Below are positions 3,434-64,000 of a DNA stretch of 64,000 bases, in pieces (the first letter of the stretch is position 1; each line of letters begins with the position of its first letter). The notes beneath the pieces were generated by a model. The model searched no databases. It was given only the letters and a program-made list of their open reading frames with translations, and was not told the DNA's origin. A program made the translations under genes and the position numbers. The DNA lies in assembly GCA_963813455.1 (NCBI GenBank), contig CAWEZF010000008.1, positions 1,874-65,873 on the forward strand. Direction: 5' to 3'. The stretch comes from an uncultured delta proteobacterium. Its GTDB lineage: Bacteria > Desulfobacterota > Syntrophia > Syntrophales > Smithellaceae.

Positions 3434-4133
3434 CTATTAACCTCTCCCAAGATCTTGAAAATTCGTAAGAACTCTTTCTTGAAAGCATGGAGTATAGAAA
3501 CGCTGTTTTCTAAGGTCAAGGTATATTTTTCATTGCAACTCGGGGGTAACGATAATGTATTCGGTTCGGTGGCGGTTTTTCTTGAGCAATCGGCTCATCA
3601 TTTAGGCACATCGCTCGTAGGAAAGATAATTTGAGACGCTATACGAGATCACACTTACAGAGTGTGGACCAGCGATTTCGGATTGAAGGAGTGCATAAAG
3701 AGGCTGATTGGAAAAAACAACAGTTCAGGAAGTAAGTCGCATTATCCTTCATCTGTAATTATTTAGAATATCAGAAAAAACGCCGGTTCATTGCCTGGTA
3801 TATTTAGGTGTAAGATTTTAATTCAAATAATTTTTTATTTTGCGTCGAAACGATGTGATAGAACTGATCCTGCGGGATGTAGATTTAGTGCACGTCGTCG
3901 TCGCGGCGGAAGAGAAAACGCGCCAGAATGATCAGTTAACGGCCTGATTGACCACGATTCCCGGTAGAATTAAAATTATGTCAGAGAGTTGTGCATGGTT
4001 CAGAACGAGGCGTTAAGTATAAAGGTATTTGGATTTTTTTAATGCCACACTACTTACAGAATTGATTAATAAATGATTTCTTGTTATATAGATTTAACAA
4101 AATTGATCGCTTCAAAATGATGGTAATAAAAAA

Positions 4134-4622
4134 ATGAAACAAGAAAATGTCCCCAGTAAGACAAGTAAGGGTGCGGTATTTATTCCTGAGCGATTAAAGC
4201 TGCTCGATAGCCTGGAGTATTTTTCTGTACTGGCAACACAGAATAAAAGTCAACCTTACACATCGCTCGTTAATTTCGCCATGACGGCTGACTGCAAGAC
4301 AATTATATTTGCCACACCAAGAAACACCCAGAAATACAGGAATATCATCAAAACAAAATCTGTAGCGCTTCTCATTGACAACAGGTCGAAAAAGATAAAA
4401 AATCTTATGGGTACGGAGGCCGTAACGGTGGTGGGGAATGCGCGTCCCGTAAAAAAAGGAAAATCAAGGGATGCTTTCGCTGGCATTTATATTAAAAAAC
4501 ACCCTGACTTGGCGGAATTTATAAACGCGCCATCTACAGCGCTTATTGTTGTAGAGGCAAAGCTATATTTACACGTGAGTCAGTTTCAAACTGTTTCTGT
4601 ATGGGATTGCGGGAGGAGGTAA
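4134..4622 (+). CDS. pyridoxamine 5'-phosphate oxidase-family FMN-binding protein
   Basis: 162 aa with a split-barrel-like pattern (VLATQNKSQPYTSLVNF...IIFATPRNTQKYRNI). Its stop lies 3 nt before the next gene. Confidence 0.55.
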   Translation: MKQENVPSKTSKGAVFIPERLKLLDSLEYFSVLATQNKSQPYTSLVNFAMTADCKTIIFATPRNTQKYRNIIKTKSVALLIDNRSKKIKNLMGTEAVTVVGNARPVKKGKSRDAFAGIYIKKHPDLAEFINAPSTALIVVEAKLYLHVSQFQTVSVWDCGRR

Positions 4623-4625
4623 ACC

Positions 4626-5891
4626 ATGAATAATGATATTAAAAATATCGGAATCATCGGGTCCGGCGTCGCCGGGCTTACCGTAGCTTATCTGTTGCAG
4701 AGAAAATACAACATCACACTGTTTGAAAAGAATGATTATATCGGAGGGCATACACACACTATTGTTATACCGGAAGGTCCGGATGCCGGGATACCGGTTG
4801 ATACCGGATTTATCGTGATGAACCACAAAAATTATCCTTTTTTTACCAGACTCTTGGAAACGCTCGGCGTGGAGCTGAGGGATAGCGTCATGTCTTTCGG
4901 ATATCATGACGAGGTCACCGGGCTTGAATACTCAAGCCTGCATTTCAATGGCCTGTTTGCCCAGCGCCGTAACCTCTTTAATCCCCGCTTCTATTCAATG
5001 CTTTTTGAGATTATGAGATTTTTCCGCGAAGCTCCTGTGGCGCTTGAGGAAGGAAAGCTCGCGGGGCTCACTCTGGGCGATTATTTCTCCAGAAACAACT
5101 TTTCCGCTTATTTCATTGAGCACCATATCTTGCCGATGGGTTGCGCTATCTGGTCCACGCCGACCAATACGATGCTCGATTTCCCCGCTGAGTCTTTTAT
5201 ACGTTTCTACAAGAACCATGGGCTACTTTCTGTGGGCGGTCAGCCGCAATGGCGCACCGTTGTCGGCGGTAGCCAGTCATACGTAAAAAAGATACTTAAT
5301 GATTTCAAAGGCAAGGTATATAATAATAAACAGATTACTTCGGTAAAGCGTATTGAGGGCGGCGTTACGGTTCTGGCGCAGGATGGCCAGCAATTCAATT
5401 TTGATGAGGTAGTTATTGCCGCGCATGCGGACGAAGCTTTTACCATGCTTGCGGACCCTTCCGCTGATGAGCGAAATTTCTTATCACCATGGCGTTATAA
5501 CAGGAACCACACGATTCTTCACACTGACTCTTCCGCAATGCCTCCAAACCGGCGTGCATGGTCAAGCTGGAATTTTATTCGCGAATCGGAAGGCGATAAT
5601 GCGCTTTCACTTACCTATAACATGAACCTGCTTCAGGGTCTTTCCGCAAAGGAGCAGTATTTTGTAACGCTTAACCGGCGCAAGCCCATTCCACGCAGTA
5701 AAATCATCGCCGAGATGCTCTACACGCATCCTATTTATACGGCTGATTCCATGAGCACTCAAAAAGATCTGCCATCGCTCAATGGTAAACTCAATACATG
5801 GTTTTGCGGCAGTTATTTCGGATACGGATTTCACGAGGACGCAGTCCGCTCAGCGGTGGCTGTTGCGCGGGATTTCGGTATAGAACTATGA
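4626..5891 (+). CDS. FAD/NAD(P)-binding amine-oxidase-like oxidoreductase (usual partner of DUF1365/CFA synthase)
   Basis: 421 aa with N-terminal GIIGSGVAGLTVAYLL dinucleotide fold and a strong GGAGGAGG RBS. Shares an ATGA overlap with the next gene. Confidence 0.8.
   Translation: MNNDIKNIGIIGSGVAGLTVAYLLQRKYNITLFEKNDYIGGHTHTIVIPEGPDAGIPVDTGFIVMNHKNYPFFTRLLETLGVELRDSVMSFGYHDEVTGLEYSSLHFNGLFAQRRNLFNPRFYSMLFEIMRFFREAPVALEEGKLAGLTLGDYFSRNNFSAYFIEHHILPMGCAIWSTPTNTMLDFPAESFIRFYKNHGLLSVGGQPQWRTVVGGSQSYVKKILNDFKGKVYNNKQITSVKRIEGGVTVLAQDGQQFNFDEVVIAAHADEAFTMLADPSADERNFLSPWRYNRNHTILHTDSSAMPPNRRAWSSWNFIRESEGDNALSLTYNMNLLQGLSAKEQYFVTLNRRKPIPRSKIIAEMLYTHPIYTADSMSTQKDLPSLNGKLNTWFCGSYFGYGFHEDAVRSAVAVARDFGIEL

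Positions 5892-29414: not shown

Positions 29415-29415
<1 letters not shown>
29380..29415 (+). terminator. rho-independent terminator after the ppiD-like gene
   Basis: 10-bp stem GGGAATCATC/GATGATTCCC followed by TTAATTTTT. Confidence 0.65.
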
Positions 29416-29490
<75 letters not shown>

Positions 29491-29558
29491 TTGAGAGTGT
29501 TTAAAAAATGTGCTGCCCAATTAACACAGGCATAAAACACTGTCAACTTGATTTTAGC

Positions 29559-29586
29559 TTGACTTTATCCCGACCGCTTATATAAT
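29559..29586 (+). promoter_or_regulatory. near-consensus sigma70 promoter for tRNA-Leu
   Basis: TTGACT, 16-nt spacer, TATAAT. The -10 element ends 10 nt before the mature tRNA 5' end. Confidence 0.55.
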
Positions 29587-29596
29587 CGCACCCCGT

Positions 29597-29684
29597 GCCG
29601 GAGTGGTGAAACTGGTAGACGCAGGGGACTCAAAATCCCCCGATCTTTACGGTCATGTCGGTTCGATTCCGACCTCCGGCACCA
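29597..29684 (+). tRNA. tRNA-Leu (anticodon CAA)
   Basis: 88-nt type II tRNA: acceptor GCCGGAG/CTCCGGC, anticodon loop CTCAAAA, long variable arm, T loop GGTTCGATTCC, encoded CCA. Confidence 0.9.
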
Positions 29685-30772: not shown

Positions 30773-32219
30773 TTATGTTGATTTGCAAAGCGCTTCGAGT
30801 TTTTTGGTAAGAATTTCCCTGATTACTTTCGGATTGGCTTTGCCGCCGGATGCCTGCATCGCCTGGCCGATTAAAAACCCCAAAGCTTTTCCCTGGCCGT
30901 TTTTATAATCGGCAACGGCGGACGGCTGATCGCCCAGCACCTTGTCGATCAAAGAATCAATTTCTCCGTGATCCGATACCTGCTTGAATCCTTTGGCGCG
31001 CACAATCGCTTCCGGCGATTCATCGCTTTCAAACAAATGCGCCAGCACTTCGCGCGCGGCGTTGGCGTTGATTTCATCGCGCGCCAGCATTTTGAGCAGG
31101 GCGGCAAAACGCGCGGGTGTTACGGATGTCTGCCCCAGCTCCTGGCGCTTTTCTTTTACCGCGGGGATTAACTGCGTGGTGAGCCAGTGCATGGCCGTGC
31201 GCGCGGCTACTCCTTCTTTAATCAGATTTTCAAAATAAAGAGCTACTTCCGCGTCGGTACTCAGATAGGAAGCTTCTTCCGCGGAAAGCCCGTATTGTTT
31301 GACAAAACGCTCCGCGCGGGCGGCGGGCATTTCCGGCAGGCGCGCGCGCAGGACTTCAATCTCTTTTTTGGACAATTTAATTACCGGCACACAAGGGTCG
31401 GGAACGCACGGGCCTTCAAATTTGGCGCGCATCGGCGTGGTGACTTTCTTTTCCGGATCCCACAGGCGCGTGTGCAGCACGATTTTTTCGCCGGCCTGAA
31501 CCGCCGCGCCCTGGCGGTTGATTTCATACGCGATGGCATCCCCCACGTGACGCACCGAGTTCATGTTTTTTACTTCCACTTTGGTATTCATCTGGCTTGT
31601 GCCTCTGGGGCGGATGGAGATATTGGCGTCAACGCGCATTGTGCCGTTTTCCATGCTGCACTCCGATGAACCGACGTTGCGCACCTGCGCGCGCAGCGCT
31701 TTGAGAAATTCCATCGCGTGATGCGGCGAGCGCAAATCCGGCTCCGATGACAATTTCCACCAACGGCGCTCCCGCGCGGTTGAAATCCACCAGGCTTACC
31801 GGTTTGCGCCCTTCCATTTCATGCACCAGCTTGGCCACGTCTTCTTCCATGTGGATGTGATGAATGCGCAATCTTTTGGCCGCGCCGTCTTCGTCGGTGA
31901 TGTCAATCCAGCCGCCTTTTGACAAAGGCAAATGCGCCTGCGAGAGCTGATAGCCTTTGGGCAAATCAGGATAGTAATAAACTTTCTGGTCAAAGGCGCT
32001 CACGGGCTGAATTTCGGCATTTAGTCCCAGGCATAAAAGCGCGGCTTTTTCCAGCGCCGCCTGGCTAAGCCTGGGCGACGCGCCGGGAAACCACAGGCAG
32101 ACAGGGCAGGTATTAATATTGGGCTCGTCGCCGGGGTTGTTGGGGCAGTCGCAAAACATTTTTGTCGCGCAGTTAAGTTCGATATGAATTTCCAGGCCGA
32201 TAACCGCTTCAAAATCCAT
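30773..32219 (-). pseudogene. gatB: Asp/Glu-tRNA amidotransferase subunit B, one frame break (or sequence error)
   Basis: N-terminal ORF 31629-32219 (IGLEIHIELN, VDFNRAGAPLVEIV). C-terminal ORF 30773-31753 (SEPDLRSPHHAMEF...YqQ/GatB_Yqey tail). Removing one A near 31748 restores EIVSEPDLRS. Confidence 0.85.
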
Positions 32220-32221
32220 GA

Positions 32222-33409
32222 TTATTTTCCTCCCCCGCCAACGAGATATTCTCCCATATCCAAGAGCCGCCCATCGGCCAATCTTGCCGCTGTCAGTTGC
32301 AGGCCTTCCCGTTTTTTATCCGGCAGATAAAGCGCGGGATGGCCGGTGACGTTGGCAAACGCTGTGTAAATAAAGTGCGCGTAGGTTTCGGCAAGTGTCG
32401 TGGGGTTTTCCGCGGCGGCAGTATTGATAGTGGGCAGAATTATAAAATCAGTTTGTTTTGTCAGCTTTGTCATTTGGGAGACCAAGCCGCGCGCGCAGGC
32501 GGCAGGCGTTTTCGTAGGCAGAATAACTTTCAAACTGAAAATACGCACCCTGAATTAAGTAGCTTTTTAAAAGTGTTCCGAAAGCCGCGCCGCGCGAGGA
32601 AAGATACATTTCGTTCCAGTTTTTCGCGCCCGGCTCGCGCTTTCCGTAGCGCACGGAATCGTAGCGCCCCGCGCACGATGAAGCCTCCACCGAGCCCACA
32701 ATTTGATGCACCGCGAGAAATTGGGAAAAATCAGGAAAGGCTAATTCCTTGATGACAAAACCGGATTTTTTTAATTCATTTAATTTCTGTTCAAAACTTT
32801 CGCGCTCTTTGGCCGGCATTTCCTTTAAAATATCTTTGATGACGCCCAGCGTAGTTTTGGCCGGATCAATTTTTGCAGGTTTTAGGTCCGGCGTTTTTTC
32901 ATCGGGAAGAGAAGAGTCGCGCTCATCGGGGCCCGCGATGGTCTGAAGAATATCACGGATATTTTTAATCTCTCCCGATAAAATACCGTATGCTTCCATA
33001 GAAGGAATCAAACCGGCCAGGCCGAAGCGCGAAACCAGCCCGTAGCTTGGTTTAAATCCGCAAACTCCCGCGCGCGCGGCAGCCAGACGCGCCTCACCCG
33101 CCAAATCCAAAACCAGCTCGGCATCCGCCGCGTTTTTTTGCAGCGCGGCATTCCGGCCATGCTGTCTTTGAGGCCGAAGCCGAATTCGCTCATGCGCGCG
33201 TAGCCGGCAAATTCAGCGCCTTCGCCTGCCATTTTATCCACAACAGCCGCGTTTTCCAGCGCGTGGAATCCGGCCAAAGCTTTTGAACCTGCTTCAGTCG
33301 GCCAGCCGGTAACGGAGATATTCGGCTGAAGCGCGATTTTCATTTTCTGCAAAGCGCCTTTGGAGGAAGCGGCTTTGCCGGTATTGCGGTAGAAAAAAAT
33401 TGAATCCAT
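32222..33409 (-). pseudogene. GatA-like amidase-fold subunit lacking the Ser-cisSer-Lys triad; two frame breaks
   Basis: Three overlapping ORFs (33008-33409, 32448-33110, 32222-32548) are collinear with GatA. The joined length is about 395 aa, versus about 485 aa for GatA. Catalytic motifs are replaced (see findings). Confidence 0.7.
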
Positions 33410-33423
33410 TTTACAGCTTCCCC

Positions 33424-35544
33424 CTATTCCAGAATATTGGCGACTTTAAAGTAATTGCCCTTAAGAGCGGGCGCGCTTTTTAGCAGTTGCCCTTTTTCGG
33501 CAAGCTCTGATTTTTTTGCCGTAAGCCCCGGGCGCGCGATACCCGCCGCGGTAACTACCGAACGGATTGGCTCATCATCAATGGAAAGATTATTAACTTC
33601 CGCGGCAAGCTTTTGCGCCTCACGCAAAGCTTCTTCCATAACCGTGCGCTCTTCCTTGGCGATGCCGATGCGCGATACCCACGAGACGCGATCGAGCAGA
33701 TTTTCTTTTTGCGCCTCGCCGGGCAAAACATCTTTGCCGCCCAGATTCAAAAGCCCCAGTTCGGCCAGCTGTTCTTTTTTGACACCCGCGGGCGCGCCGG
33801 TCAAAGGACAGCCGGCGGAGCGGTTTTTGGGGAAGGCGATAACTTCGCGGATGGATTGCGTGCGCAGAATCATCGAAACCGCGCGGTCCATGCCCAGCGC
33901 CAGGCCCCCGTGCGGCGGCGCGCCAAAGTCAAACGCGCGCAGGAAAAATCCGAATTTTTCTCTCATCTCTTCATCCGTCAAACCCAGCGCGGAAAAGATT
34001 TTGCGCTGCACTTCACGGTTGTTGATACGGATACTGCCGCCGCCTAATTCCTCGCCGTTGATTACCAGATCGTAGGCGCGCGAGCGCAGAGAAAGAAGCT
34101 CTTCCACATTTTTCGGATCGAAATCCACGCGCTCCGGCGCGGTAAAGGGATGATGGCTTGATGTCACGCCGCCTTCGTCCGTGGGTTCAAAAAGGGGAAA
34201 GTGCGTAACCCAGACCGGATAAAAATTATCTTCGCCAATCAGCCCCAGGCGATTCGCCAGATGCAGGCGCAACTGCCCCAGCGCCTGAAGTAACAATTGC
34301 GTAAGACGGGTCGGCAACCATGATCAGCACGTCGCCGTCTTGCACTTCAAAACGTTTCTTTAATTCATCGAGTTCCGCCGCGGAAAAAAACTGCACGATG
34401 TTGGATTCCAGCTTGCCGCCTTCGGCTCGCATCCAGGTCATGCCTTTGGCGCCGAAAGAAGGCGCGATTTCCTTGGCGTATTCATTCTGCAAAACGTTTT
34501 TGCTCAAACTCGCGGATTGCTGCTTAATGTTTATTCCCTTGATGCATCCGCCGCGCTGCAGAATCTGTTTAAAGATGGAATAATTGGTGTTGGCGAAAAC
34601 ATCCGTCACATCCACAAACCTGAGCCCAAAGCGCAGATCCGGCCTATCCGAGCCTGTTGAATCCATCGCCTCGGCATAAGTCACGCGCGGGAAAGGACGC
34701 GGCAATTCAATGCCCGCCACGGCAAACATTTTTACGGTAAGTTCTTCAATAAGTTCGTAGAGAAATTCCTCGTCGATGAATGAAGCTTCAATGTCGAGTT
34801 GGGTGAATTCCGGCTGACGGTTGGGGCGCAGATCTTCATCGCGGAAACAGCGCGCCAGCTGAAAATAACGCTCCAGGCCGCCGATCATCAAAAGCTGTTT
34901 GAAAAGCTGGGGCGATTGGGGCAGGGCGTAAAAATTTCCCGGGTGCACGCGGCTGGGCACCAGATAATCACGCGCGCCTTCGGGCGTGCTGGCGGTGAGC
35001 ATGGGAGTTTCCACCTCCACAAAACCGCGCGCGTCCAGAAATTGCCGCACGCATTGAAAAATTTTATGCCGAGCAATAGATTTTCCTGCATGGCCGGACG
35101 GCGGATATCCAGATAGCGGTATTGCAGGCGTAAATCTTCCGAGACATTTTCTACAGAAGCGTCTTCAGCGCCTGCCACCATGGCTTTGTCGGAAATCGGA
35201 AACGGCAGAGCATCTGATTCGCTAAGCACCGAAAGCTCGCGGACAAATACTTCCAGCGCGCCTGTTTCAATATTGGGGTTTTGAGTTCCCTCTATTCTTT
35301 TTTTAACCTCGCCCGTTACGGCAATGCAGTATTCCGTGCGCAGCGTTGTCGCCGTTTTGCAGATATTATCTGAAGAGGCCTCCGGGCTGAAAACAATCTG
35401 CACAATGCCGCTGCGATCGCGCAGGTGAATAAAAAGCAGGCCGCCGTGGTCGCGGTAGGCATCCACCCAGCCGCAAAGCTGCACGGTTTTGCCGGTATGC
35501 TGTAAAGACAAATCGCCGCAAAAAATACGCTCAGAAAAATTCAT
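33424..35544 (-). pseudogene. aspS: aspartyl-tRNA synthetase with C-terminal GatC-like domain; two frame breaks (or sequence errors)
   Basis: Three overlapping ORFs carry class IIb motifs (FYALPQSPQLFKQLLM, FRDEDLRPNRQPEFTQLD, GGLALGMDR). The last ~95 aa resemble GatC. Confidence 0.85.
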
Positions 35545-35741
35545 GAAGAAGCCCTTTCCGGTTGAAAATGAAGGAACAAATTTGTGCCGCGGATAGTATC
35601 AAAACTGTACCGATGTTTCAAGGATTCATAATCGCGGTGTAAAAAGATGAGAAAATTTATAGCGGTTGGAAATTAGGGGGGGGTAATTAATGTTCAGAAA
35701 GAACGAGTTATACCAGATTCGCCTTCCGAACATTTAGGATG

Positions 35742-43884: not shown

Positions 43885-45289
43885 CTACTGCACCGCCCTG
43901 CCCGGCCTTCTCTTTACCCTTACCGCGGCTCTATCTGCGGCCTTTTGCTTCAATACCGGAACAACAAAAATAGTATAGAGCGCGCACATGCCGAAGAACG
44001 CGGCCATGACAACGGCCACCCAGTAATTGGCAAACATCACGTTGCCGGCGGCGTCTTTGCTTATATCGGTAAAAATGCCAATGAGCAGGCCGGCAAAAAT
44101 TATTATGGTGATGATGGGAATCAGATAACCGCCGGGCACTTTGAAATCCCGCGGGGTATCCGGCATTCTTCTTCTGAGCCTTATGACGCAGGCAGCCATC
44201 ACAACATAGATGAAGCATTCAAGCGCCGCCGCCATGATAATTATGAAAAGATACTGGCCGGAAATAAGGACAAAGAAGCTCACAAGAAGCGCGAAGAACA
44301 TAAGCCCGAGAATCGCAACCCACGGCGTGGCGTGATCCGGATGCAGCCTGCTGAAAACGCTGGGCAGAACATTGTCCCTGGCCATCGCGTAGGCGAAACG
44401 CGATGTGTTGAGAAGCCCGGAATTAAAAGACGTGACCGACGCAAGTATGCTCATGACTATAAAAACGGCAAGCCCGGTTTTCCCGAACAGGTTCTGGCCG
44501 AAAAGGATATGCGGGATGCTCGTACCCGAAAGCCTCTGTTCGGGCGTCAGGCCGATCCACATGGCGACGGTAAAAAGCGCGTATGTCACGGAAAGCAGGC
44601 CGATGGCAATCATCATTCCCTTGCCGATAAGCCTGTAATCGGTTGTTTCCTCGGCCAGCGGCGTCACCCACTCGAAACCCGACATAAAGGAAAACGCCCA
44701 CAGCGGCAGCGGTAATGACATTGGAAAGCGTGAATTGCGGATTTGTGAGTGCCGGAATAATGCTCAGGTCGATTTTGAAGATTGCGTACAGGGAGACGAA
44801 AATCAGAAAGCCGATCATTGTGTAAGTGAGGATGTCCTGAACAAAACCTGTCAGCCTGATGCCGCGGTAATTTATTGCCGCAACCGCCAGAATAAAAAAT
44901 ACCAGCCAGAAAGCGCGATCAAAAGTCGGGCTTACAATATCGAACGCGTGGACAAGTACGCTGGCCAAAAGGTAACTTTCGGCGCCGACCATGGAAATGC
45001 CGAGTAGGACATAAAAACTTCCGATTATAATCGCCGCCTTTTCATTGAACGCTTTCTGGATGAACAGCTTTATGCCGGCGGCTGTCGGATACTGGGAGGT
45101 AAGCTCGGAAAAGCACATGGCCGAAAGCAGGCACAAAAGCCCGGCAATCAGTATTGATATCCATGCCAGTTCGCCGACAACAATCGTCGCCACCTGAAAA
45201 CCGGCAAGGTAGCAGGATGTGGCCAGCGCCATTCCCGCGGATGCCGAAATAACCGTCCGCAGTTTGAGTACTTTTTTAAGTGTGGTCAT
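43885..45289 (-). pseudogene. APC-superfamily amino acid/polyamine transporter, one frame break (or sequence error)
   Basis: ORFs 44423-45289 and 43885-44721 are collinear. The join FLYVGF|EWVTPLAEE lies at a GGGTTT run near 44670. Confidence 0.75.
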
Positions 45290-61609: not shown

Positions 61610-62536
61610 TTATGGGATAAATTTATTTTTTTTGAGAGAATCGATAAAAATTTTGTGAAACGGCCGGAAATCAAAGTTGTGCCGGTAAATTAAATGAAAG
61701 TTTCTCTCCATCAGGCAGCCCTGAATGGGAATTTCCGCCAGCAAGCCCTGCGCAAGTTCGCGCTCCACAGCGTGAATGGAAATAATAGAGACACCGAGTC
61801 CCGCGATTATTGCTTCTTTAACGGCTTCGGAACTGCCGAGCTCCGCGCAGATATTAAATTGGGAAAGATTTACTGATTTTTCCTCTTTGAGATAGTTTTC
61901 CATAAAATCCCTGGTTGCAGAACCTTTCTCTCGCACAATGAAAGGTTCTGCAAATAATTCTTTCATCACAACAGACTTGGTTTTGCTCCATTTATGTTTT
62001 TTGGGCACAACTAAAATAAGACGGTCTTTCCAAAGTTCCCGTGTTTCCAGTTTTTTATTTGAAGGGCTTTTGCCGATAATGCCCATTTCCACTTCGCTTG
62101 CCAAAACCATGTTCATAACTTCTTCGCTGTCCGCCGTTTTGATATACATGGTGATATCCGGATGATTTCCGCGTAGCGCGCTCAACACACGCGGCAGTAT
62201 ATAGGTGGCCGGTATGGTGCTGGCGCCGATATAAATATTTCCGCCGGTATTTGCTCCCAGCGCGGTTATTTTTTCCTTTGCCTCCTCACGAAGTTTCATT
62301 ATGCGCCGCGCGTAATCATAAATTACTTTTCCTTCCGGCGTGAGCGATATTCCCGCACTGCCTCTGTTTACCAGAGGCGCGCCGAGATAATCTTCCGCGT
62401 TTCTGATATTTTTGGTGAGTGCCGGCTGACTTATGTGCATTTTCCTGGCGGCCAGGCTGAAACTGCCTTCTTCCACAAGGGAAATCAGCGCTTCCATTTG
62501 CTGAAGAGTTATATTTTTAAAATGCTCTGTTTTCAT
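61610..62536 (-). CDS. LysR-family transcriptional regulator
   Basis: 308 aa with N-terminal wHTH FSLAARKMHISQPALTKNIRNAE. Divergent from yedE. Confidence 0.85.
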   Translation of the reverse strand: MKTEHFKNITLQQMEALISLVEEGSFSLAARKMHISQPALTKNIRNAEDYLGAPLVNRGSAGISLTPEGKVIYDYARRIMKLREEAKEKITALGANTGGNIYIGASTIPATYILPRVLSALRGNHPDITMYIKTADSEEVMNMVLASEVEMGIIGKSPSNKKLETRELWKDRLILVVPKKHKWSKTKSVVMKELFAEPFIVREKGSATRDFMENYLKEEKSVNLSQFNICAELGSSEAVKEAIIAGLGVSIISIHAVERELAQGLLAEIPIQGCLMERNFHLIYRHNFDFRPFHKIFIDSLKKNKFIP

Positions 62537-62732: not shown

Positions 62733-63811
62733 ATGAAAAACATTTTTTCTTCAAAAGCAGGGATAATTATCGTCGGTGGCATTATCGGCATTATCGCCGC
62801 CCTGTTGCAGTATTTCGGTAATCCCGCCAATATGGGTATTTGCGTTGCCTGTTTTGAGCGCGATATTGCCGGCGCGCTGGGATTGCACCGCGCGGGAGTC
62901 GTGCAGTATCTGCGCCCGGAAATTATGGGTCTTGTGCTGGGCGCGTTTGCCGCGGCGCTTTTTGCCGGAGAATATAAACCGCGCGGCGGTTCATCTCCTT
63001 TAATCCGTTTCTTCTTAGGAATGTTTGCCATGATCGGCGCACTGGTATTTTTAGGTTGCCCCTGGCGCGCGCTGTTGAGACTGGCGGGTGGTGATGGAAA
63101 CGCCATTTTGGGACTTCTTGGGATTAGCCACAGGAATTTTCATCGGCATCCAGTTTCTCAAAAGAGGTTTTAGCCTCGGGCGCTCTCACGCGCAGGCGAA
63201 AGCCAGCGGCTGGATAATGCCCGGCTTCATGGTTGGCGTTATTTTTGCTTCTGGTTTTCAAAGTTCAGTTTGCCGAAGGCGGCCCGATTTTCTTCAGTGA
63301 AGAAGGCCCGGGCTCTCAGTACGCCCCGATTTTTGTTAGTCTGATCGCGGGTCTGATTATCGGCACGCTCGCGCAGCGCAGCCGCTTCTGCACGATGGGC
63401 GCGATTCGTGATGTGATGCTGACCAGAGATTTTCATCTGATCAGCGGCGTGGCCTCATTGCTTGTTTTTGCTTTTGTTATGAATTTAATTTTAGGACAAT
63501 TTAATCCCGGTTTTGCCGGACAGCCCGTGGCGCATACCAATCATGTCTGGAACTTTTTGGGCATGACATTGGCAGGCCTTGCCTTCGCTCTGGCTGGTGG
63601 TTGTCCCGGCAGACAGCTATTTCTTTCCGGTGAGGGTGACGCGGACGCGGGTGTGTTTGTTATCGGCATGATTGTCGGCGCGGGAGTCGCTCATAACTTT
63701 GCTTTGGCCAGCTCCCCTCAGGGCGCGAGCGCTTTTGGGCCCATTGCCGTGGTTATCGGCTTGGTGTTTTGCCTGATTATCGGCTTTACCATGCTGCAGA
63801 GGGCAAAATAA
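62733..63811 (+). pseudogene. yedE: YedE-family putative selenium-metabolism membrane protein, two frame breaks (or sequence errors)
   Basis: ORFs 62733-63173, 63088-63300 and 63233-63811 are collinear (GICVACFERDIAG.., GCPWRALLRLAGGD.., RSRFCTMGAIRD.., GGCPGRQLFLSGEGD). Confidence 0.75.
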
Positions 63812-63816
63812 TTTTT

Positions 63817-63911
63817 GACCGGCTGAGTTGGCTGGTGCCGGCCGCGGGCTTCAAACCCGTCGGGCAAACAATGCAATGTTTGCTGTTGGGGTTCGATTCT
63901 GAAGCCGGTCT
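63817..63911 (+). tRNA. tRNA-Sec-like tRNA, anticodon UCA (selC or a selC-mimicking tRNA); weak T arm, no encoded CCA
   Basis: Hand fold: 8-bp acceptor GACCGGCT/AGCCGGTC, 6-bp D stem with 4-nt loop, anticodon loop CTTCAAA, 25-nt variable region (7-bp stem GCAAACA/TGTTTGC), GTTCGAT T loop, and U at the discriminator position. Confidence 0.5.
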
Positions 63912-64000
63912 TCACATAGAGGTATTACAAAAAATGTTTTTTGGCGGTAAAAAACAAAATAAATTTGAGGGCGGCGGGCTTGTTCTTTTTCAGGCCGTGG

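Follow-up and report, generated by a model that had tools for sequence, protein, structure and literature searches.

The 64-kb stretch of DNA analysed here, referred to as the window, carries a tRNA-Sec-like gene with a UCA anticodon on its forward strand, at positions 63817-63911. The best explanation of the comparative data is that the gene specifies a functional tRNA belonging to a conserved family that appears to derive from tRNA-Sec. On balance, this tRNA is probably of the tRNAReC/selC* type, charged with cysteine and co-expressed with genes for selenium uptake.

A tRNA-Sec-like gene adjoins yedE

ARAGORN called a tRNA-SeC(UCA) with ends exactly at 63817 and 63911. The Rfam tRNA-Sec model (RF01852) matched the same interval with 52.1 bits, above the gathering score of 47 (E = 1.3e-07). 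Our own covariance model of the family (R1) scored the window tRNA at 99.8 bits. ARAGORN was among the checks proposed in an earlier note on this sequence.

The 5' half of the RNA is laid out as GACCGGCU-GA-GUUGGC-UGGU-GCCGGC-C-GCGGG-CUUCAAA-CCCGU-C-G-G. The 3' half continues as GCAAACA-AUGCAA-UGUUUGC-UG-UUGGGGUUCGAUUCUGA-AGCCGGUC-U. The acceptor stem has 8 bp and is formed by GACCGGCU (63817-63824) and AGCCGGUC (63903-63910). A 2-nt linker, GA, leads to the D arm, which has a 6-bp stem (GUUGGC/GCCGGC) and a UGGU loop of 4 nt. The anticodon arm comprises a 6-bp stem with one bulge and the loop CUUCAAA, with UCA at 63851-63853. In the variable arm (63864-63883) a 7-bp stem carries a 6-nt loop. 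The T arm (63886-63902) has the 5' strand UUGGGG (GGGG at 63888-63891), the loop UUCGAUU and the 3' strand CUGA. The acceptor stem, linker, D arm, anticodon loop and long variable arm had all been drawn by hand in the earlier note; each is present, and ARAGORN and Rfam agree on the UCA anticodon. The discriminator base is U (63911) and is followed by UCAC; CCA is therefore not encoded, and both of these anomalies had been described correctly. By contrast with the UCA tRNA gene, the tRNA-Ala(GGC) and tRNA-Leu(CAA) genes of the window do encode CCA. The window element is a real, conserved tRNA gene and not a chance resemblance.

The element had also been placed right after a selenium-linked yedE gene. 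Indeed, yedE (62733-63811, forward strand), which encodes a putative YedE-family selenium transporter (TIGR04112), ends 5 nt upstream. In the window this gene is read in three frames, with one TIGR04112 match per frame (profile positions 2-122, 118-164 and 159-337). Alignment to four intact orthologues located two single-base insertions, near 63113 and 63232. Divergent from yedE is a gene for a selenium-metabolism-associated LysR-family regulator (61610-62536, reverse strand; NF040786, LysR_Sec_metab, 280.6 bits against a cut-off of 250), an arrangement kept in relatives. Downstream of the tRNA lies the start of a further forward-strand gene, MFFGGKKQNKFEGGGLVLFQAV... (MFFGGKKQNKFEGGG...), at 63935-64000, which is cut by the window end. 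Its orthologue in locus L035 (5129-5668) matches PF11823, Se_S_carrier. The order yedE, tRNA, Se/S carrier, kinase-like gene and TusA is common to at least nine loci. The selenium locus proposed in the earlier note is confirmed, and its support is stronger than that note had.

The yedE stop codon is separated from the tRNA by 5 nt, and a further 23 nt precede the Se/S-carrier gene. No terminator-like site was found between yedE and the gene downstream of the tRNA. The best candidate for a promoter of the tRNA's own was a 9/12 consensus match ending 5 nt before the tRNA; this was rejected as too close to convince. Given the short gaps, the absence of a terminator-like site in this interval and the weak promoter match, co-transcription of the tRNA with the yedE operon is the simplest reading of spacing and synteny. 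Within the 64-kb window we found no selD, selB or second tRNA-Sec gene. An exact-protein look-up with the LysR regulator, used to reach beyond the window end, gave no match.

Relatives form a family distinct from canonical tRNA-Sec

Homologues were collected by exact 36-mer search, by a yedE-based locus search and by two DNA pattern scans; they are cited here by locus number. We obtained at least about 25 relatives, mostly from Smithella/Syntrophaceae and also from Nitrospirota, Eisenbacteria, Acidobacteriota and Desulfococcus. There was one tRNA per assembly in a complete 22-mer census. One 22-mer match, in Paludibaculum (L211), contained no tRNA and was discarded as a chance match.

The genes found fell into two sharply distinct groups, canonical tRNA-Sec and the family of the window element. 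Among the matches listed, canonical genes start with GG and most encode CCA. Family genes start with GAC(C/U)GG, and UCA and U73 were invariant in about 25 of 25 relatives among the matches listed. Conversely, G73 was present in 78 of the 81 tRNA-Sec-type genes outside the family, among the matches listed from the same scans. None of the other three is a canonical tRNA-Sec exception: L045 is of the selC* type and has U, and in L168 and L192 the tRNA start was misplaced by ARAGORN. The second acceptor pair is G2-C71 in the canonical set and A2-U71 or A2.C71 in the family. About 16 Smithella/Syntrophaceae genomes of the family do not encode CCA; eight family genomes (Nitrospirota, Eisenbacteria, Acidobacteriota and one Desulfococcus) do. 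The A2.C71 mismatch is kept in one sub-branch (L004, L010, L011, L018 and L120), and the sub-branch of the window has A2-U71.

In an alignment of 16 homologues, 95.7% of cells were paired and 12 of 31 pairs had changed on both sides. The observed pairing was reached by none of 500 shuffles, and no slid register came close. Compensatory changes include C4-G to U-A, pair 7:66 (found as C-G, U-A or G-C), a T-stem A-U to G-C and most of the variable stem. Judged from this alignment, the family tRNA is evidently under purifying selection. The D and anticodon arms of L003, a canonical tRNA-Sec with G73 and CCA, are identical to those of the window over 36 nt. With the family model L003 scored 68.9 bits, and L045, of the published delta-proteobacterial selC* type, scored only 45.9 bits.

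Geometry of the acceptor/T branch

The T arm of the family reads (U)UCAG-UUCGAUU-CUGA(A), with UCAG and CUGA usually forming a clean T stem. The A that follows CUGA has two possible partners: U8, which gives an 8/4 branch, and the U before UCAG, which gives a 7/5 branch. In L011, L120 and L208, the base before UCAG is C, A or G and a fifth T pair is impossible. Hence, 8/4 is favoured for the Smithella clade. At position 8, the 7-bp-acceptor members L144 and L169, from Acidobacteriota and Eisenbacteria, have A or G and therefore require 7/5. The acceptor/T branch of the family is thus predicted to have 12 bp, as 8/4 or 7/5, rather than the 13 bp of bacterial tRNA-Sec. The earlier note had assigned the element bacterial tRNA-Sec geometry; the arms hold as drawn, but the family branch is of 12 bp and not 8/5. 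Its 8/5 drawing of the T stem (UUGGG/UCUGA) is possible for the GGGG variant only and needs a T loop shifted by one base.

The GGGG T arm recurs in metagenome contigs

In the window T arm GGGG replaces the CAG of relatives, which have UUCAG; this amounts to two substitutions and one extra base. GGGG was absent from about 22 relatives in the genome collection. Because of this absence, and because aspS, gatB, a permease gene and yedE are frameshifted, an assembly error was initially suspected. The aspS gene (33424-35544) is split over three frames, and gatB (30773-32219) and the amino-acid permease gene (43885-45289) are each split over two; all three are on the reverse strand. In L213 aspS forms a single open frame, and four relatives have an intact yedE; the window assembly therefore carries single-base indel errors, near 34288, 35070, 63113 and 63232, which also occur outside homopolymers. 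As aspS and gatB are essential, their frameshifts mark these lesions as assembly errors and not decay.

For the GGGG stretch itself, an assembly error was rejected. Four independent metagenome contigs (L213-L216), with yedE intact, contain an exact copy of the window-specific 25-mer that spans it. The weak T stem remarked upon in the earlier note is therefore real. The four contigs share only about 80-82% identity with the window (yedE about 78%; wider shared flank about 82%). Where complete, they carry yedE in intact form, and next come the tRNA, the Se/S carrier and the kinase-like gene; the GGGG tRNA adjoins the intact yedE in L213, L215 and L216. All four share one tRNA sequence, which combines the 5' half of L040 with a change of G32-C40 to A-U and the same GGGG arm. 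The change of G32-C40 to A-U is compensatory, in the anticodon stem, and so the gene has remained constrained in these four copies. In a yedE tree, the window groups with L033 and the metagenome type with L035 and L040; all three of these relatives are of the CAG type. Beyond the T arm, only 2 to 4 differences set each GGGG copy apart from the CAG relative closest to it, and a compensatory pair is among them. From these comparisons we take the GGGG T arm to be a real natural allele, neither a sequencing error nor a sign of decay. Its occurrence on two genetic backgrounds could be explained by recurrent mutation or by allele exchange.

Where the anticodon stem meets the variable arm, the sequence is GTTGGG(C) in L035, L040 and L213 and GTCGGG in the window. 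The repeat sites are 63857-63865 and 63885-63892 in the window and fall within L213:8883-8978. The change from GTT-CAG to GTTGGGG took place about 27 nt downstream of the repeat at this junction. Speculatively, GGG could have been copied from the direct repeat by template switching, which would account for the same complex change on two backgrounds.

The GGGG arm can be drawn in four ways. One is an 8/5 form (-37.3 kcal/mol), in which three of the pairs are G.U and the loop moves by one base. ARAGORN draws a 7/5 form with tandem G.A/G.G mismatches and a canonical T loop, and a third form is 8/4 with a 2-nt bulge. The fourth is not a cloverleaf: AACCC (positions 38-42) pairs with GGGUU (73-77), and U35-C36, the first two anticodon bases, pair with G79-A80 of the T loop. 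In window coordinates these pairings join 63854-63858 to 63889-63893 and 63851-63852 to 63895-63896. ViennaRNA prefers the non-cloverleaf for both GGGG tRNAs, at -44.7 kcal/mol for the window and -42.2 kcal/mol for L213, and predicts a cloverleaf for CAG relatives. The A-U pair of L213 is compatible with either fold. Because the minimum-energy fold of the GGGG tRNA is not the cloverleaf (-44.7 versus -37.3 kcal/mol), its competence as a tRNA is uncertain.

Most family copies sit in selenium loci

Most copies of the family sit in selenium loci. The tRNA follows yedE in the window and in L004, L011, L033, L034, L035, L040, L205, L206 and L213-L216. It lies between yedF and yedE in L010 and near yedF in L018, L120 and L208. 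In a Nitrospiraceae contig (L137), the cluster consists of a LysR_Sec gene, yedF, selD and then the family tRNA. The catalytic Sec/Cys codon of this selD (3680-4735, forward strand) is an in-frame UGA (SHGAG*ACK). The tRNA (4766-4860, forward strand), with U73 and an encoded CCA, starts about 30 nt after selD. Four or five relatives are away from selenium genes (L106, L200, L202, L209 and L186); four belong to the Smithella clade and one to Desulfococcus.

About eight closely related yedE/Se-carrier operons have no tRNA and only 13-50 nt between the two genes. The covariance model found no degraded tRNA copies in about 70 other yedE loci. Absent from close operons without leaving remnants, the tRNA gene is therefore accessory. 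The repeated embedding in yedE/yedF/selD operons and the GGGG allele were not found in the searchable literature, a body that excludes the 2017 supplement of the study discussed below.

In three Syntrophaceae operons without the tRNA (L036, L037 and L041; at about 5.7-7.8 kb in each locus), selD closes the cluster, which also holds yedE, the Se/S carrier, the kinase-like gene and TusA. The position of selD at the cluster end reinforces a role of the operon in selenium uptake and activation.

Comparison with known tRNA classes

Three features define the selC* tRNA-Cys class: a cloverleaf like that of tRNA-Sec, with a long variable arm and lengthened acceptor and anticodon stems; U73; and an anticodon of either GCA or UCA (Mukai et al. 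2017, NAR, PMC5389517). Its carriers include a Smithella composite genome and Nitrospirae-like contigs, and carrier genomes have complete Sec machinery, with canonical selC in all (PMC5389517). For another member of the class, charging with cysteine and suppression of UGA were shown in E. coli (PMC5389517). The delta-proteobacterial selC* has an 8/4 branch with a single bulged A51a, A1:U72, and selB* immediately downstream, joined in some Desulfobacterales by cysS* (PMC5389517). The class was later given the name tRNAReC, and, as cited in PMC13582414, this tRNA translates UGA as Cys via SelB when a SECIS is present (Vargas-Rodriguez et al. 2018, RNA Biol).

By its shape, U73 and UCA, the window element falls within the definition of the known tRNAReC/selC* class and is a further member of it; with the 2017 supplement outside the comparison, we do not claim a new variant. 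The likeness extends to a cloverleaf found by tRNA-Sec models, occurrence in anaerobes including Smithella/Nitrospirae and linkage to selenium. In the Smithella clade of the family it also includes the 8-bp acceptor and 4-bp T stem. The earlier note had raised the option of a tRNA-Cys mimic of delta-proteobacteria with UCA, U73 and an 8/4 branch, which agrees with the published description (Mukai et al. 2017, PMC5389517). As an identity for the window element, this option is the best supported, by UCA, U73 and the 12-bp branch, but the element falls outside the delta-proteobacterial subtype as published. That subtype has the A51a bulge, whereas the family has none and relatives have a clean 4-bp UCAG/CUGA. 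It has A1:U72 where the window element has G1:C72. It is followed by selB*/cysS*, whereas the window and at least nine relatives have a Se/S-carrier homologue instead. Its D arm, as seen in L045, is shorter than the 6-bp/4-nt D arm of tRNA-Sec type found in the family. The family also differs from tRNAReC/selC* in its yedE/yedF/selD operon setting and in the 7/5 branch of some members.

The published type was represented by a positive control, the selC* of a Syntrophaceae MAG (L045:769-860, reverse strand). This copy has A1:U72, U73, UCA and an encoded CCA, and its T stem, GGAGG/CCCC, contains a bulged A. Directly downstream is selB* (MERHITIGIAGHVDHGKT...; L045:2-694, reverse strand), which encodes a SelB homologue. 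About 2 kb separate the selC*-selB* pair from a LysR_Sec-yedE operon without a window-type tRNA.

Canonical tRNA-Sec resembles the window tRNA in its D and anticodon arms (the 36 nt shared with L003), UCA, long variable arm and 8-bp acceptor. However, it has G73, G2 and a 13-bp branch, whereas the family has U73, A2 and a 12-bp branch and is accessory. The (8/4) allo-tRNAs have a 12-bp branch of 8/4 or 9/3, a tRNA-Sec-like D stem with a tetraloop, a long variable arm and G73 or U73; U73 together with a long variable arm is read as serine identity (PMC5389517). Their anticodons are highly diverse, covering about 35 codons (PMC5389517). The family shares with them the 12-bp 8/4 branch, the D stem with tetraloop, the long variable arm and a permitted U73. 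Conversely, allo-tRNAs have many anticodons and other genomic settings, whereas the family has UCA only and selenium-gene neighbours. Finally, the tRNAReU of Pelotomaculum has reportedly lost its Cys identity elements and is said to be an extra UCA tRNA serving UGA/SECIS sites. It is likewise an extra, tRNA-Sec-like UCA tRNA, but in the window family U73 is strictly kept.

Amino acid identity and possible function

Two features favour cysteine. U73 is strict across phyla while stem pairs vary, and G73 is near-constant outside the family. In addition, the second acceptor pair is not the G2-C71 found in tRNA-Sec. The strictness of U73 points to a positive identity element for another synthetase. 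Against a firm assignment, the long variable arm and the tRNA-Sec-type D arm leave SerRS and SelA as possible partners. SelA recognises the D arm of tRNA-Sec; since this arm is kept, conversion of Ser to Sec is conceivable.

Under the cysteine reading, the gene would be transcribed within the yedE-tRNA-Se/S-carrier operon under the divergent LysR regulator, as spacing and synteny suggest. The tRNA would then be cut out of the transcript and CCA supplied by the CCA-adding enzyme. By identity rules and published work on other members, CysRS may load cysteine via U73. The charged tRNA would read Sec UGA codons, probably delivered by SelB at SECIS-containing sites. During selenium shortage, selenoprotein genes, including a UGA-containing selD, might in this way still be translated as Cys forms.

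Four other readings compete with a cysteine-charged tRNA. A genuine tRNA-Sec, second or sole, is unlikely though worth weighing. Such a tRNA, similar to tRNAReU, would use SerRS via its variable arm, SelA via its D arm and SelB for delivery, with U73 tolerated. This would account for the Rfam match above threshold, for the core identical to a canonical G73/CCA gene and for the L137 copy directly after selD, where canonical selC sits in L161. In none of the loci retrieved was a second tRNA-Sec seen. Furthermore, allo-tRNAs with U73 are taken to accept Ser, and some tRNA-Sec species have an 8/4 branch (PMC5389517). However, the contrast between U73 inside the family (about 25/25) and G73 outside it (78/81), among the matches listed, speaks for a different identity, as do A2-U71 or A2.C71 in place of G2-C71. 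Moreover, the gene is accessory, the close operons that lack it having no room for it, and canonical selC is reported in all selC*-carrying genomes (PMC5389517). Less likely again is an opal suppressor of the allo-tRNA type, charged by SerRS, delivered by EF-Tu and causing general or regulated read-through of UGA with Ser. The 12-bp 8/4 or 7/5 branch, D tetraloop, long variable arm and U73 match the description of allo-tRNAs, and the 7-bp-acceptor members L144 and L169 would be expected to bind EF-Tu. Set against this are the invariant UCA, where allo-tRNA anticodons are diverse (about 35 codons), a setting among selenium genes that is unlike allo-tRNA contexts, and the cost to the cell of unregulated Ser at UGA.

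It is improbable that the element is non-translational, acting as a tRNA-shaped processing, stability or regulatory element in the yedE mRNA, with a GGGG fold that may hide the anticodon. Its embedding in the operon, with gaps of 5 nt and 23 nt, would suit such a role, as would the predicted non-cloverleaf of both GGGG variants beside the cloverleaf of CAG relatives. Regulatory roles have been raised for related tRNAs (Mukai et al., PMC5389517). Nevertheless, conservation of the anticodon, the discriminator, the T loop and each of the four stems is what a decoding tRNA would show, some members lie outside the operon (L106, L200, L202 and L209), members in other phyla encode CCA, and minimum-energy predictions are often wrong for tRNA folds. 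No more probable is that the window copy and the other GGGG copies are inactivated relics, crippled by the T-stem change. Two Watson-Crick T-stem pairs are lost in the family register, the family model score is about 15 bits below those of L034 and L205, the cloverleaf lies 7 kcal/mol above the minimum-energy fold and yedE is frameshifted in the window. However, the same allele occurs in two lineages, adjoining intact yedE in L213, L215 and L216. The few other differences from the nearest CAG relatives (2 to 4) include a compensatory pair. The frameshifts extend to essential aspS and gatB and are assembly errors, and irregular or bulged 8/4 T stems are known in the selC* class (PMC5389517). 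The degenerate copy considered in the earlier note is thus unlikely, since the odd T arm recurs beside intact yedE and the rest of the tRNA is conserved.

If the tRNA is cysteine-charged, as we favour, a tentative extension is possible. The tRNA may be a selenium-status-coupled recoding device that places Cys at UGA/SECIS sites during selenium scavenging, including the bootstrapping of a Sec-containing selD, with GGGG as a selected variant. The idea of selD bootstrapping comes from the arrangement of selD(UGA) and tRNA in L137. As part of the same tentative reading, GGGG might restore the 13-bp geometry for SelB or toggle the tRNA to an anticodon-hiding fold.

Without selenium, UGA codons in essential redox enzymes and in selD are unreadable, which poses a problem at start-up and in scarcity. 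Insertion of Cys instead, by tRNAReC/selC* tRNAs, has been proposed as a safeguard. Such a tRNA occurs repeatedly in operons for selenium uptake and activation, across phyla and beside a selenium-associated regulator; the prediction is that its expression tracks selenium status. The CAG and GGGG alleles of the T arm form a natural pair for the role of acceptor/T geometry in the choice between SelB and EF-Tu. tRNA finders label genes of this family as tRNA-Sec, so that inference of the selenocysteine trait can be misled.

Organisation of the window

In L213, a gap of about 265 nt separates the aspS region (window 32460-35632) from that of rubrerythrin, menA and yedE (window 58461 onward). Relative to L213, the window has about 22.8 kb of extra DNA, at 35632-58461. 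The tRNA-Ala/tRNA-Leu pair (29415-29684) is 33 kb from yedE in the window and 2-4 kb from it in L004, L035, L040 and L206.
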